From NCBI GenBank assembly GCA_900234795.1, contig LT962688.1:1080001-1112000 (forward strand): a stretch of 32,000 bases of DNA. Direction: 5' to 3'. The notes under the pieces are model-generated. The model saw only the letters and a list, made by a program, of their open reading frames with translations. It was not told the DNA's origin and did not search any database. This document shows positions 18,286 to 22,630 of the stretch, one piece after another (within the stretch, counting starts at the first letter, position 1; each line of letters begins with the position of its first letter). This DNA comes from Methylorubrum extorquens. Its GTDB lineage: Bacteria > Pseudomonadota > Alphaproteobacteria > Rhizobiales > Beijerinckiaceae. A program made the translations under genes and the position numbers.

Positions 18286-18804
18286 ATGAGCACGAAGGCC
18301 GCCAACACCGCCCTCAAGACCACCGACGCCGCCCCGGAGCTTCAGGGTGCCGCCGGCTCCTACCTCGAGGCGCTGCACCTCGTGGAGCGGCTGCACCGCC
18401 GCCTCCTCGACGTCATCAAGGACGAGTTCGACCGGCGCGGCCGCGAGGACGTCAACAGCGTCCAGGCGCTGCTGCTCTACAACATCGGTGACAAGGAGCT
18501 GACCGCGAGCGAGCTGCGCTCGAAGGGCTACTATCTCGGCTCGAACGTGTCCTACAACGTCAAGAAGCTCGTCGAGGCCGGCTTCCTGCACCACGCCCGC
18601 TCCAAGACCGACCGGCGCTCGGTGCGCATCAGCCTGACGCCGAAGGGTCGCGAAATCCACGACCTGATCCAGGGCCTCTACGACAAGCATGCCCGCACGA
18701 TCCAGCCGATCGGCGGCATCTCCGAGGACGATTTCGGCCGCCTCAACCAGGCGCTCTCCCGCCTGGAGCGCTTCTGGACCGACCAGATCCGCTACCGTCT
18801 CTGA
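18286..18804 (+). CDS. MarR-family winged-helix transcriptional regulator (possibly LdtR-like, from memory)
   Basis: 172 aa reading LHLVERLHRRLLDVIKDEFDRRGREDVNSVQALLLYNIGDKELTASELRSKGYYLGSNVSYNVKKLVEAGFLHHARSKTDRRSVRISLTPKG. AGGAAGG SD upstream of the ATG. Confidence 0.85.
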   Translation: MSTKAANTALKTTDAAPELQGAAGSYLEALHLVERLHRRLLDVIKDEFDRRGREDVNSVQALLLYNIGDKELTASELRSKGYYLGSNVSYNVKKLVEAGFLHHARSKTDRRSVRISLTPKGREIHDLIQGLYDKHARTIQPIGGISEDDFGRLNQALSRLERFWTDQIRYRL

Positions 18805-18824
18805 GCGCGGCGCCGGGACATCGA

Positions 18825-18878
18825 AAGCAGGAAGGCCGGAGGGTTCTGTCGCGAACCCTCCGGCCTTCCTGCTTTTCG
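18825..18878. terminator. Strong bidirectional rho-independent terminator (22-bp stem)
   Basis: aagcaggaaggccggagggttc (18825-18846), loop tgtcgc, then gaaccctccggccttcctgctt (18853-18874) followed by tt. T-runs follow the stem on both strands. It sits between the convergent MarR gene and pqqA genes. Confidence 0.8.
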
Positions 18879-18961
18879 CCGCGTCAGAAGCAAACGAAAA
18901 AGGGCGCCGCCCTCTCAGGCCGCGCCCCCGTTCTCACCGGATCGAGTCCGGCGACGCCTTC

Positions 18962-19051
18962 TTAGTTGAAGGTGTCGATCTCAGCGGACTCGTAGGAGGT
19001 GACTTCCATGCCGACACAGATCTCGGCAACGACGGGAGCGGACCACTTCAT
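18962..19051 (-). CDS. pqqA: PQQ precursor peptide PqqA (29 aa), distal copy
   Basis: Translates to MKWSAPVVAEICVGMEVTSYESAEIDTFN with the conserved E-x3-Y (EVTSY) cross-link residues. SD AGGAGA lies 6 nt upstream of the ATG. The copy is hidden inside spurious track ORF 18962-19480. Confidence 0.9.
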   Translation of the reverse strand: MKWSAPVVAEICVGMEVTSYESAEIDTFN

Positions 19052-19113: not shown

Positions 19114-19203
19114 TTAGTTGAAGGTGTCGATCTCGGCGGACTCGTAGGAGGTGACTTCCATGCCGACGCAGATCTCGGCAACGATGGGGGCAGACCACTT
19201 CAT
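19114..19203 (-). CDS. pqqA: PQQ precursor peptide PqqA (29 aa), promoter-proximal copy
   Basis: Translates to MKWSAPIVAEICVGMEVTSYESAEIDTFN. SD AGGAGA lies 6 nt upstream. It is followed on the minus strand by a short hairpin (ccagc-cccag-gctgg) and a T-rich tract. Confidence 0.9.
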   Translation of the reverse strand: MKWSAPIVAEICVGMEVTSYESAEIDTFN

Positions 19204-19682: not shown

Positions 19683-21143
19683 ATGCACGACATCCGCGCC
19701 ATCCGCGAGAACCCGGAGGCCTTCGACCGCGATCTGGAGCGGCGTGGCCTCGCGCCCCTCAGCGCCGAGCTGATCGCCCTCGACGACGCGCGCAAGGCTG
19801 CGGTCTCGGCCGCACAGGCGGCCCAGGAGCGGCGCAACGCGCTGTCCAAGGAGATCGGCGCCGCCAAGAAGGCCAAGGACGAGGCCCGTGCGACCGAGCT
19901 GATGGCCGAGGTCGCCCGGCTGAAGGAAGAGGCACCGGGCCTCGAAGCCGCGCAGGGGGAGGCAGCCAAGGCCCTCGACGAGCGTCTCGCCGCGATCCCG
20001 AACCGTCCGAAGGACGACGTGCCTCCCGGCGCCGACGAGCACGGCAATGTCGAGTACCGCCGCTTCGATTCCTCCCGTGAGCGCCTGGCGCAGGGCCGCC
20101 AGCATTTCGAGCTCGGCGAGGCCACCGGCCTGATGGATTTCGAGGCGGCCGCGAAACTCTCCGGCTCGCGCTTCGTCGTGCTGAAGGGCCAGCTCGCCCG
20201 GCTGGAGCGGGCGCTCGGCCAGTTCATGCTCGACCTGCACACGGGCGAGCACGGCTATACCGAGGTGGTGCCGCCGGTCCTCGTGCGCGACGAGGCGATG
20301 TTCGGCACGGCACAATTGCCGAAATTCCGCGACGATCAGTTCGCTACTAGTTTCAGCGACAAACAAATTTTAGATCTTTTCGACGGAATGGTTTCCCAAG
20401 CTTACCTTGACGCTGAAAAGATGGCCTCAGAAGATGGGAAGTACCAGATCGAAGGCCTGAAAGAAATATTCGAGCAGCAGCGACCTATTTGGCGAGCACG
20501 ATTTGACTCCGAAAAAGATGCTCAGTTGCGCCGCTGGCTGATCCCCACGGCGGAAGTCCCGCTCACCAACCTCGTGCGCGAAAGCATCCTCGCGGAGGAC
20601 GAGCTTCCCTTGCGCTTCACCGCGCTCACCCCCTGCTTCCGCGCGGAGGCCGGGGCGGCGGGGCGCGACACCCGCGGCATGCTGCGCCAGCACCAGTTCA
20701 ACAAGGTCGAGCTGGTCTCGATCACCGCTCCGGAAAAATCGGCCGAGGAGCACGAGCGGATGCTCGCCTGCGCCGAGGCCGTGCTGCAGAAGCTCGATCT
20801 CACCTATCGCGTCATGACGCTGTGTACCGGTGACATGGGCTTTGCCTCCCAGAAAACCTACGACATCGAGGTCTGGGTGCCGGGCCAACAGACATACCGC
20901 GAGATTTCGTCCTGCTCGGTCTGCGGCGAGTTCCAGGCGCGGCGGATGAATGCGCGCTACCGGGCCAAGGAGGGCAGGGGGGTCGGCTTCGTCCACACCC
21001 TGAACGGCTCGGGCGTCGCGGTCGGCCGCGCGCTGATCGCCGTGATGGAAAACTACCAGAACCCCGACGGCAGCGTCACGATCCCGTCGGCGCTCCAGCC
21101 CTACATGGGCGGCCTCACCCGGATCGAGGGACCGAAGAACTGA
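19683..21143 (+). CDS. serS: Serine--tRNA ligase (SerRS) carrying a ~62-codon insertion
   Basis: N-terminal coiled coil, motif 1 ([11 protein letters not shown]), [11 protein letters not shown], motif 2 ([25 protein letters not shown]) and motif 3 ([17 protein letters not shown]) are all present. At 486 aa it is longer than the ~420-430 aa usual for bacterial SerRS (E. coli is 430). Confidence 0.95.
20342..20527 (+). other. Low-GC, in-frame insertion block within serS (codons ~220-281)
   Basis: Hand count gives 81/180 G+C (45%) over 20341-20520, against 60-72% in adjacent 50-60-nt serS segments. Codons rare for this genome are used (TTA, ATA, AAA, GAA, GAT, CAA, ACT, AGT). TCAGTT occurs at 20336-20341 and 20522-20527, exactly 186 bp apart. 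Confidence 0.8.
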
Positions 21144-21907
21144 TGCGCATCCTGGTCACCAACGACGACGGCATCCACGCGCCGGGCCTGGAGACGCTGG
21201 AAGGCATCGCCCGCGTGCTCAGCGACGATGTCTGGGTGGTCGCGCCCGAGACCGATCAATCGGGCGTGTCGCACTCGCTCTCGCTCAACGATCCGCTGCG
21301 CCTGCGCCAGATTGGGGAAAAGCGCTTCGCGGTGAAGGGCACGCCCTCGGACTGCATTATCATGGGGGTGGCCCACATCCTCAAGGACCACAAACCCGAC
21401 CTCGTGCTCTCGGGGGTCAACCGCGGCCAGAACGTGGCCGAGGACGTGACCTATTCCGGCACCATCGCCGGGGCGATGGAGGGCACGATCCTCGGCATCC
21501 GCTCGATCGCGCTGAGCCAGGCCTACGGCGCGGGCGGGCGGGCCAACCTGAAATGGGCCTGCGCCGCCACGCATGGGCCGCGGGTGATCGAGAAGATCCT
21601 CGAGATCGGCATCGAGCCCGGCATCCTCGTCAACGTCAACTTCCCCGATTGCGAGCCGGAGGACGTGCAGGGCGTGGCGGTCTCGGCGCAGGGCCAGCGC
21701 AATCAGGCGCTCCTGCAGATCGATGCCCGCCACGACGGGCGCGGCAATCCCTATTTCTGGCTCGCCTTCGCCAAGGCGCGGTTCGAGCCCGGCAACGGCA
21801 CCGATCTCAAGGCGATCGCCGAGAACCGAATCTCGGTGACGCCGCTGCGGCTCGACCTCACCGACGAGCCGGAACTGACCCGCTTCGCCGCGGCGTTCCG
21901 GGCGTGA
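21143..21907 (+). CDS. surE: 5'/3'-nucleotidase SurE
   Basis: [16 protein letters not shown]...VVAPETDQSGVSHSLS...SGVNRGQNVAEDVTYSGTIAGAMEG. The ATG overlaps the serS stop codon (TGATG). Confidence 0.95.
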   Translation: MRILVTNDDGIHAPGLETLEGIARVLSDDVWVVAPETDQSGVSHSLSLNDPLRLRQIGEKRFAVKGTPSDCIIMGVAHILKDHKPDLVLSGVNRGQNVAEDVTYSGTIAGAMEGTILGIRSIALSQAYGAGGRANLKWACAATHGPRVIEKILEIGIEPGILVNVNFPDCEPEDVQGVAVSAQGQRNQALLQIDARHDGRGNPYFWLAFAKARFEPGNGTDLKAIAENRISVTPLRLDLTDEPELTRFAAAFRA

Positions 21908-21931: not shown

Positions 21932-22630
21932 ATGCCGCCTGAGGCCGGAGAGCCCGACGAACGGGCCGAACGGCTGTCCGCGGGGCTGGCGGAGGCGACC
22001 GGCAACGCCGCCTTCGTGCTGGCCCTGCGCGAGCGGGGCGTGCGCGACACCGCCGTGCTGCGGGCGATGGAACAGGTCCCGCGCGAGCGCTTCGCGCCGC
22101 CGGCTCTGCGCCCGCATGCGCGGCGCGACATCGCCCTGCCGCTCGCCTGCGGTCAGACCATGACCGCGCCGAGCGTCGTCGCGCAAATGCTCGGTGCCCT
22201 CGACCTCGCCCCCGGCCAGCGCGTGCTGGAGGTCGGCACCGGCACGGGCTACGTCACCGCCCTGCTGGTGCGGCTCGGGGCCGCTCATGTGCGCAGCCTG
22301 GAGCGCTACGAGGGGCTCGCCCGCGCGGCACGGGCGCATCTGGGGCGCGACCTTTCCGACGTCACCGTCGAGACCAATGACGGGCTCGCGCCCGAAGTCG
22401 TGCGGGGCGGAAGCTACGACCGCATCCTCGTCAACGGCAGCCTCGCCGCGCTGCCACCGCACCTCCCCGCCGCGCTCAAATCCGGCGGCCGGCTGGTGGT
22501 GGGCCATTGGACCGGGCGGGGGAGCCGGCTCGTGACGCTGACCCGCGACAGCGCGGCCGCCTACGCCCGGACGGAGGGGGCGGCCCTGCGCCTCGGCCCT
22601 CTGACGCCGGGGCGTGCGCTGGCGCCGTAG
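21932..22630 (+). CDS. pcm: Protein-L-isoaspartate O-methyltransferase
   Basis: VLRAMEQVPRERF...GQTMTAPSVVAQMLGALDLAPGQRVLEVGTGTGYVTALL contains the SAM-binding motif I. The position after surE is the conserved one. Confidence 0.9.
   Translation: MPPEAGEPDERAERLSAGLAEATGNAAFVLALRERGVRDTAVLRAMEQVPRERFAPPALRPHARRDIALPLACGQTMTAPSVVAQMLGALDLAPGQRVLEVGTGTGYVTALLVRLGAAHVRSLERYEGLARAARAHLGRDLSDVTVETNDGLAPEVVRGGSYDRILVNGSLAALPPHLPAALKSGGRLVVGHWTGRGSRLVTLTRDSAAAYARTEGAALRLGPLTPGRALAP

Follow-up and report, generated by a model that had tools for sequence, protein, structure and literature searches.

A low-GC, in-frame insert in the seryl-tRNA synthetase of Methylorubrum extorquens as a probable allele of a hypervariable cassette site

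In class II aminoacyl-tRNA synthetases, the loop on the 3′ side of motif 1, termed the small interface, acts together with the active site and the dimer interface (PMC10810186). Nested insertions have been gained independently in this loop by PheRS-A, SepRS, and the archaeal SerRS-A, and the SerRS-A insertion, a helix-turn-helix of 36 amino acids, is tied to dimerisation (PMC10810186). Insertions in synthetases are usually seen as ancient and clade-defining. The present study concerns serS, the gene for seryl-tRNA synthetase (SerRS), in 32,000 nucleotides of Methylorubrum extorquens DNA (GCA_900234795.1, contig LT962688.1, positions 1,080,001 to 1,112,000 of the forward strand; the window hereafter), where, in contrast, the loop differs between strains with 95-99% identical serS flanks. 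An AT-rich block within this gene is probably a translated module of about 60 residues with two helices, which represents one long-lived allele (family F1) of a hypervariable SerRS cassette exchanged by recombination. Variable-region cassettes are familiar from the target-recognition domains of type I restriction HsdS, pherotype loci, and low-GC O-antigen loci. Synthetase insertion modules and allelic variable-region cassettes are known kinds; full-text literature searches found no prior description of a hypervariable insert locus in serS.

The low-GC block singled out in the initial annotation (20342-20527) is real. Its G+C content is 0.452 compared to 0.686 for the window, and a 120-nt sliding profile shows values of 0.45-0.50 within the block and 0.69-0.74 on both sides. 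The block had been described as 62 codons bounded by a direct repeat; the low-GC in-frame segment stands, but these limits do not, as the insert proper covers codons 221-284 and starts at 20343 rather than 20342 (Table 1). It consists of 64 in-frame codons in place of an ancestral six-residue turn, AAGDGY, when referred to the insert-free arrangement DDQF-AAGDGY-WLIP. Accordingly, the protein has 486 residues, compared to about 428 in the baseline enzyme without the segment (427 or 428 in relatives). A six-frame check of the block showed that the serS frame is the only open one, the encoded peptide being the one originally given, and shuffled versions of the block stay open in just 2.3% of cases. 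The G+C content at third codon positions (GC3) is 0.47 in the insert, 0.895 upstream, and 0.911 downstream, and A- or T-ending codons make up 34 of 64 codons in the insert compared to 37 of 411 in the remainder of the gene (Fisher p = 2.4e-15). The composition is therefore foreign to the gene (GC3 of about 0.90), as had been noted, and it forms the sole strong GC3 dip among the genes of the 32-kb window. No Pfam domain was detected in the insert, and nothing above noise emerged when the ten longest inserts from other families (see below) were compared with Pfam.

The two edges of the insert were compared in codon usage and in the proportions of nonsynonymous and synonymous sites that differ (pN and pS, respectively). 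On the right side, host-like codon usage follows straight after the insert, and GC3 is back to 0.9 from 20523 on. On the left side, the amino acids of the 12 preceding codons are kept, the codons are AT-shifted, and synonymous divergence is as fast as in the insert; within families these codons show a pN of 0 and a pS of 0.43 to >0.8, and the left-flank GC3 is 0.58-0.75 in loci L090-L092. In addition, SerRS residues 216-217 (20328-20333; RD here) co-vary with the insert family. On the grounds of the AT shift, the insert-like synonymous divergence, and this co-variation, the 12 left codons were counted as part of the cassette. The co-variation suggests a structural coupling of the conserved strand at residues 216-217 with the insert. 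The residues preceding DQF are R-D or R-E in insert-free enzymes and E-D, E-E, E-N, A-D, K-N, or W-E across the insert families.

The variability of the site was examined in the 120 best SerRS homologues, all from Methylobacterium or Methylorubrum and 427-518 residues long. Their length variation lies wholly between the invariant sequences LPKF.DDQF and WL[IV]PTAEV. No insert is a conserved element of most family members, because 52 of the 120 enzymes have a turn of five or six residues, mostly AAGDGY, and the other 68 carry inserts of 12-96 residues that fall into 29 families mutually unrelated by blastp (E < 1e-3 on short peptides). A protein search with a 117-residue segment added SerRS fragments from metagenomes of other Hyphomicrobiales, and at least 69 unrelated families were then found in 135 insert-bearing sequences, all at one single position, with no unrelated inserts elsewhere in SerRS. 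Among the matches listed, which include few Methylobacterium loci, the same site is filled in species-representative genomes of Bosea, Bauldia, Ancylobacter, Devosia, Fulvimarina, Rhizobium, Xanthobacteraceae, Hyphomicrobiaceae, and Hellea and in one Rhodospirillales metagenome-assembled genome; about 45 loci of other phyla in the same set all have a short spacing of 17-18 residues and are unoccupied, the inserts being limited to one bacterial order and a few neighbours. Named species are themselves polymorphic, since SerRS lengths of 457, 476, 488, and 518 residues occur in M. populi and of 457, 476, 489, and 500 residues in M. thiocyanatum, that is, four length classes in each of the two species. 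The initial annotation had raised the question of whether the block is strain-specific among relatives: the segment is indeed strain-variable, but what the relatives carry is either the ancestral turn or one of dozens of unrelated segments.

Some families extend beyond a single genus. The second half of the F1 insert contains a motif, L.E[IV]F.QQ.P.WR.RFD.E..QL[RK].WL, that is common to SerRS proteins P0210 and P0179 of other genera (blastp of the insert in P0001, the identical protein of the databases, E = 8.7e-08 and 7.2e-05, respectively). Another family, ..TRT.TREELL..AL......RAP.KEDFWL, is found at loci L009, L014, L031, L015, and L023 and in proteins P0090, P0142, P0156, and P0157. It occurs in Bauldia, Hyphomicrobiaceae, Fulvimarina, Rhizobium, and a Methylobacterium as well as in several metagenome fragments, and of all families it may have occupied the site longest and be largely fixed there. 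SerRS gene calls near the site are often only 80-200 residues long despite long contigs (769 kb, 1.05 Mb, and 1.75 Mb), as among P0123-P0242 (e.g., P0125, P0214, and P0225). These short calls could be due either to frameshift errors or to gene callers that break at the AT-rich insert and split serS annotations. Similarly, the contig of locus L101 (IMGVR_UViG_3300047307_000055, 3001-3663) ends 32 nt past SerRS residue 221, at the insertion site, possibly because the assembly broke where strains in that metagenome differ in their insert.

A comparison of the DNA of twelve alleles showed how the inserts are distributed relative to their flanks. Loci L086, L087, and L088 (M. populi / M. thiocyanatum group) share flank DNA identities of 95-97% upstream and 98-99% downstream, and despite these near-identical flanks they bear three unrelated inserts. 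Conversely, the F1 insert is found at L081 within a background of the L086/L087/L088 type, and, relative to the flanks of L081, those of the F1 copy in the window are only 93-94% identical and those of L082 only 82-88%. In the nucleotide alignment, the left flank stays similar up to about 35 nt from the insert and the right flank up to about 6 nt from it. Unrelated sequences thus occupy a fixed position, with differing alleles between near-identical flanks and the same allele between divergent flanks. The distribution of the inserts is decoupled from their flanks, and the SerRS loop is an allelic cassette locus.

Substitution patterns within families provide information on whether the insert is translated. 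The F1 insert of the window shows a pS of 0.675 and a pN of 0.059 relative to L081, and 0.86 and 0.19 relative to L082; the corresponding values are 0.86 and 0.20 between the F2 inserts of L086 and L090, and 0.71 and 0.20 between the F3 inserts of L091 and L092. The within-family pN/pS ratio is 0.09-0.28, and the value of about 0.09 for the window and L081 is as low as that of the catalytic core. Synonymous sites of the inserts are 60-94% saturated within families (60-85% among the three F1 copies of the window, L081, and L082), and those of the flanks are 40-68% saturated across lineages sharing families. The conservation of amino acids together with far-diverged synonymous sites indicates that the segment is translated and constrained, and the same pattern excludes a function of the sequence at the DNA or RNA level. 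Judged from these patterns, the insert peptide is made and matters, which agrees with the early proposal of an in-frame, translated extra segment at a loop of variable length that lies after motif 1 and before the LIPTAEV strand.

The claim that the block had been acquired recently does not survive the same comparison. The protein evolution of the insert is 2-5 times faster than that of the catalytic flanks, as expected of a peripheral module, and the pN of the F1 insert in the three pairwise comparisons (0.059, 0.188, and 0.218) scales with that of the flanks (0.015, 0.08-0.12, and 0.08-0.12). A naive Jukes-Cantor synonymous distance (1.73 for the insert and 0.22-0.30 for the flanks) would make the insert six times older than its flanks, but this figure was rejected as an artefact because pS saturates much lower at a GC3 of 0.9. 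After correction for composition, the cassette exceeds the flanks in synonymous distance by a factor of just 1.6-2.5, which, together with the scaling of pN, indicates that the insert has been resident in this gene pool for about as long as the lineages have diverged.

The low GC3 could be followed across families as well. The seven sequenced members of F1, F2, and F3 all have a GC3 of 0.39-0.57 despite their synonymous divergence, including the three F1 copies at 0.47-0.50, and maintenance near 0.5 with far-diverged synonymous sites again argues that the insert is not recent. In 19 of 28 insert-bearing loci, insert GC3 is 0.29-0.57, with a host GC3 of 0.71-0.95 in 18 of the 19; only in Hellea (L029) do the values for insert (0.52) and host (0.47) agree. 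Even where host GC3 is moderate, the insert lies below it, at 0.42 compared to 0.71 for L022 and 0.45 compared to 0.74 for L008. Widely shared or fixed-looking families lie near host GC3: the TRT..EDFWL family has values of 0.62-0.92 at five loci in five genera, with hosts at 0.73-0.91, the AVLDGEALRG family (13 protein clusters) has 0.89, and the SVFNGLDY family has 0.86 at L089 and 0.73 at L004, where the host has 0.93. Low GC3 is therefore a stationary property of most families.

The enzyme is of the bacterial class IIa type, with both a coiled-coil arm and a class II core. Pfam assigns Seryl_tRNA_N to residues 1-109 (7e-25) and tRNA-synt_2b to residues 280-458 (2e-39), so that the class II core is detected from residue 280 onward only. 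Solved bacterial SerRS structures all match the protein in two pieces, 3-223 and 283-480 (E 1e-126), which leaves about 60 residues extra relative to all known structures. The insert lies after VVPPVLV...LPKFRDDQF and before LIPTAEV...FRAEAG, that is, between motifs 1 and 2; by sequence position, the loop would correspond to the small-interface hairpin of class II enzymes. A structure prediction, one of the checks proposed at the outset, was obtained with AlphaFold2 from a 40-sequence alignment (model m61ddfbf2f964). The insert is predicted to form a two-helix hairpin in a model of moderate quality (mean predicted local distance difference test score, pLDDT, 65.7), with ten-residue pLDDT blocks of 60, 76, 76, and 69 over residues 221-260 and 60-79 across the insert. 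The model of P0088, which has a beta-looking insert, is mixed alpha/beta with an insert pLDDT of 34-59, and the inserts may thus possibly lack a common fold. A Foldseek search of the window model against the PDB returned ordinary SerRS alone at a template modelling (TM) score of about 0.5, which reflects the mediocre model and is uninformative on the insert. The similarity that an internal duplication would produce between the insert and the N-terminal coiled-coil arm of SerRS was looked for and not found.

The initial annotation had left the choice between a mobile element and a recombination product. A recombination product is the best explanation, and a selfish in-frame mobile element, resembling a Rickettsia palindromic element (RPE) or a miniature inverted-repeat transposable element (MITE) with a 6-bp target-site duplication, is largely refuted and very improbable. 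An in-frame AT-rich block in an essential gene, with TCAGTT at 20336-20341 and again at 20522-20527, exactly 186 nt apart as described, fits such an element. However, the reading of this repeat as an insertion junction fails on three counts: for 5.9% of position pairs drawn at random from the window at this spacing, the same 6-mer lies no more than 8 nt from each of the two points, which places the repeat at chance level; it is not present in the homologous F1 inserts of L081 and L082; and excision through it would leave a loop four residues shorter than any insert-free allele. Moreover, no terminal inverted repeats (best end-proximal arms, 7 nt), palindrome, or stable hairpin (RNA fold z-score, 0.17, which is unremarkable) were detected, and neither a second nor a template-like copy occurs within the 32-kb window. 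A phmmer search of the insert alone against 1.84 billion representative proteins matched two repeat proteins, P0121 and P0122, which were judged chance matches because their E-values are inflated by 4-6 repeated stretches; no credible homologue was thus found in this set. An insert-only search of a word-indexed protein database gave no candidates, which reflects a limit of the index and carries no evidential weight. No match was found by tblastn of the insert and its edges against phage and plasmid collections or by F1 peptide-pattern scans of JGI metagenomes and IMG/VR, and the SerRS genes on viral contigs have no insert. The arrangement itself, with unrelated sequences at the same site rather than the same element at different sites, is not that of RPEs. 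Nor does it correspond to a diversity-generating retroelement, as the window holds no template copy and the variation is overwhelmingly synonymous. Removal of the segment before the enzyme is made (as an intron, by translational bypass, or as an intein), or an assembly or engineering artefact, is scarcely credible. The odd composition would be accommodated by it, but the strong protein conservation with diverged synonymous sites would not. No Rfam match was found within 20300-20560 even at E ≤ 1, no promoter- or terminator-like sites were found by scan, and synonymous sites vary freely within the family, unlike in a self-splicing intron or structured RNA. The insert starts with Ala and ends with LRR|W, with no C/S/T nucleophile at its N-terminus, no His-Asn at its C-terminus, and no Hint-domain match, and at 64 residues it is too short for an intein, whose Hint fold has at least about 130 residues. 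As to artefacts, which the initial annotation had kept as alternatives, the identical protein is found on 20 contigs and under three independent accessions, and diverged copies occur in unrelated, independent metagenomes.

Two further explanations accept the insert as a genuine part of the enzyme. Repeated recent import from a hidden lower-GC reservoir (the serS of other alphaproteobacteria or mobile elements), with no mobile-element vehicle, could account for a GC3 of about 0.5 in nearly all variable families whatever the host GC3, for AT-shifted codons that run into the conserved left flank like a donor tract, and for the F1 helix-2 relatives in the SerRS of other genera (P0210 and P0179). 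It is nevertheless quite unlikely, since the three F1, both F2, and both F3 copies all lie in GC-rich flanks of the Methylobacterium type, the amino-acid divergence of the F1 insert scales with that of the flanks, and any donor tract would have to be under about 35 nt to the left of the insert and under about 6 nt to its right. In addition, no copy was found in the phage, plasmid, IMG/VR, and JGI metagenome searches, and the insert is below the host even at moderate host GC3 (L022 and L008). The other explanation is a permissive loop filled with neutral stuffers, in which random DNA was inserted independently and illegitimately, drifted, and was kept by purifying selection for solubility or foldability only. 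That class II loops readily accept insertions is known (PMC10810186) and is in line with this explanation, as are the working insert-free enzymes of the same genus (P0027, P0028, and L085), the lack of Pfam domains in the inserts, and folds that may differ (helical in the window and mixed alpha/beta, at low confidence, in P0088). A neutral origin is still rather unlikely: at least 69 unrelated families occupy a single position and none occurs elsewhere in the protein, the inserts are restricted, among the matches listed, to one order and a few neighbours, and a pN/pS of 0.09 between the F1 copies of the window and L081 equals the constraint on the catalytic core. Families also persist across lineages whose flank synonymous sites are 40-68% saturated, several of them coexist within named species, and random AT-rich DNA is seldom open, as the shuffles demonstrated.

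Recombinational exchange of long-lived alleles, the explanation that we favour, would operate as follows. In Methylobacterium, Methylorubrum, and other Hyphomicrobiales, the SerRS loop has either the six-residue turn or one of many mutually unrelated inserts of 12-100 residues, and the alleles would be swapped between strains by homologous recombination through near-identical serS flanks and persist across species, gene transfer among related strains being assumed plausible in this group. The module would be a non-catalytic surface decoration, a role suggested by the existence of insert-free enzymes in the same genus. The diversity of families could be kept by frequency-dependent selection from something docking on this face of SerRS, neutrality being less likely. 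More tentatively, the insert may act as a specificity cassette at the enzyme surface whose diversity is maintained by a SerRS-docking antagonist, for instance a protein inhibitor, a toxin delivered into the cell, or a protein of a phage. For the low GC3, a segment whose partner in most recombination events is non-homologous might escape the force that holds GC3 at 0.9 elsewhere; whether a recombination-linked GC force acts through biased gene conversion or through more effective selection is debated (PMC11879095).

Several points weigh against this explanation. The AT-rich tract is asymmetric, with 12 codons on the left and approximately none on the right, which the idea of escape from recombination alone does not predict. 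Some families counted as unrelated are possibly very distant kin, given that F1 joins P0210 and P0179 through helix 2 only. The search for copies at the DNA level of this genome was confined to the 32-kb window. The two AlphaFold predictions are of mediocre quality (mean pLDDT 65.7 for the SerRS of the window and 66.6 for P0088), and the modelled orientation of the hairpin relative to the tRNA, the active site, and the dimer interface is not to be trusted. An antagonist or partner of the insert is something that we purely infer, as we do balancing or frequency-dependent selection on the inserts and the recombination-escape account of the low GC3.

Table 1. Features of serS and its insert, in positions of the window
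Feature	Position	Strand	Basis
serS, seryl-tRNA synthetase, 486 aa	19683..21143	+	ORF; Pfam; 100% identity to P0001
Insert proper, codons 221-284, ATSFSDKQ...DAQLRR, family F1	20343..20534	+	Comparison with 52 insert-free relatives, GC3, codon usage, pN/pS
Left cassette edge, 12 codons, amino acids TAQLPKFxDDQF	20307..20342	+	pN/pS, alignment of 12 alleles, GC3
Right boundary, WLIPTAEV	20535..20558	+	Nucleotide alignment, GC3 profile
TCAGTT, left copy	20336..20341	+	Direct repeat, judged coincidental
TCAGTT, right copy	20522..20527	+	Direct repeat, judged coincidental
Predicted helix 1, residues 226-251	20358..20435	+	AlphaFold2
Predicted helix 2, residues 256-281, carrying the F1 helix-2 motif	20448..20525	+	AlphaFold2, blastp, alignment

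The genomic context identifies the gene further. The serS product is 100% identical to the SerRS of Methylorubrum extorquens / M. zatmanii (P0001; ARO53243.1, KQQ14913.1, and SOR27807.1), the longest of the contigs that encode it being 5.7 Mb. The order pqqA-pqqA-serS-surE-pcm is constant in the Methylorubrum alleles L083 and L085-L089 whatever the insert, or with none; L091 has a pqqA fragment 5′ of serS and surE 3′, L081 and L082 have the order serS-surE-pcm, and surE follows serS in all fetched alleles. The gene is therefore the orthologous chromosomal locus and not a paralogue or resistance copy. In the window, the serS stop and the surE start share a single base, 21143, which is the last of serS and the first of surE (21143-21907), and pcm follows surE at 21932-22630, the serS-surE-pcm order being kept in all related loci fetched. 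A tandem pair of pqqA genes on the minus strand (18962-19051 and 19114-19203), each encoding a pyrroloquinoline quinone (PQQ) precursor peptide of 29 residues, MKWSAP[VI]VAEICVGMEVTSYESAEIDTFN, sits between a MarR-family gene (18286-18804, plus strand) and serS, and is labelled PF08042:PqqA in L083 and L085-L089. Sub-threshold Rfam matches to several microRNA families and to the alphaproteobacterial small RNA ar35 at 18822-18929 all fall on a GC-rich hairpin just 3′ of the MarR-family gene, which is most simply the terminator of that gene and not an RNA gene.

If the proposed role is true, an arms-race interface would be hidden within an aminoacyl-tRNA synthetase, an essential cytoplasmic housekeeping enzyme with a hypervariable locus. 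A stationary GC3 of about 0.5, with 0.9 in the rest of the gene, would amount to a natural experiment in which transcript, expression, and genome are identical, and the extreme GC3 of these genomes would then be upheld by a recombination-dependent force and not by translational selection. Should the cassette explanation be upheld, the locus could serve as a test bed for the birth, tolerance, and exchange of new peptide modules in an essential protein, would point to an interaction not yet known at this SerRS surface, and, as a non-recombining island at GC3 0.5 within one gene, would bear on the question of high bacterial GC. It would also be a warning for phylogenetics and annotation, since serS alignments, clustering at 90% identity, and gene calls break at the site.

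Compared to systems already described, the locus shares some features with each and combines them differently. As with inteins and homing elements, the site is bracketed by highly conserved sequences, LPKF.DDQF and WLIPTAEV, which are potential homology arms across species; unlike them, the segment has no splicing residues, Hint domain, or endonuclease, is far too short, and is retained in the protein as judged from purifying selection. The Rickettsia palindromic elements are likewise translated in-frame insertions at tolerated surface positions of conserved genes, but they form one palindromic family spread over many genes, whereas here many unrelated, non-palindromic sequences share one site in one gene, and the searches found no further copies. 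In architecture, the closest known analogue would be the small-interface insertion of the SerRS-A type, for which kinship in sequence is not expected. The insertions of SerRS-A, PheRS-A, and SepRS occupy the same loop between motifs 1 and 2 as small, translated helical add-ons (PMC10810186), the helices being predicted in the present case; those insertions are fixed and family-defining, whereas the loop examined here is strain-polymorphic, with dozens of unrelated inserts in atypical codons alongside an allele of the same genus that lacks any insert. The mode of variation is closer to that of HsdS, pherotype, and O-antigen cassettes, in which unrelated sequences at a fixed site are exchanged through conserved flanks and have a GC below that of the host. 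Those cassettes, however, face an external partner, such as DNA targets, signals, phages, or immunity, whereas the SerRS cassette resides in an essential cytoplasmic enzyme.

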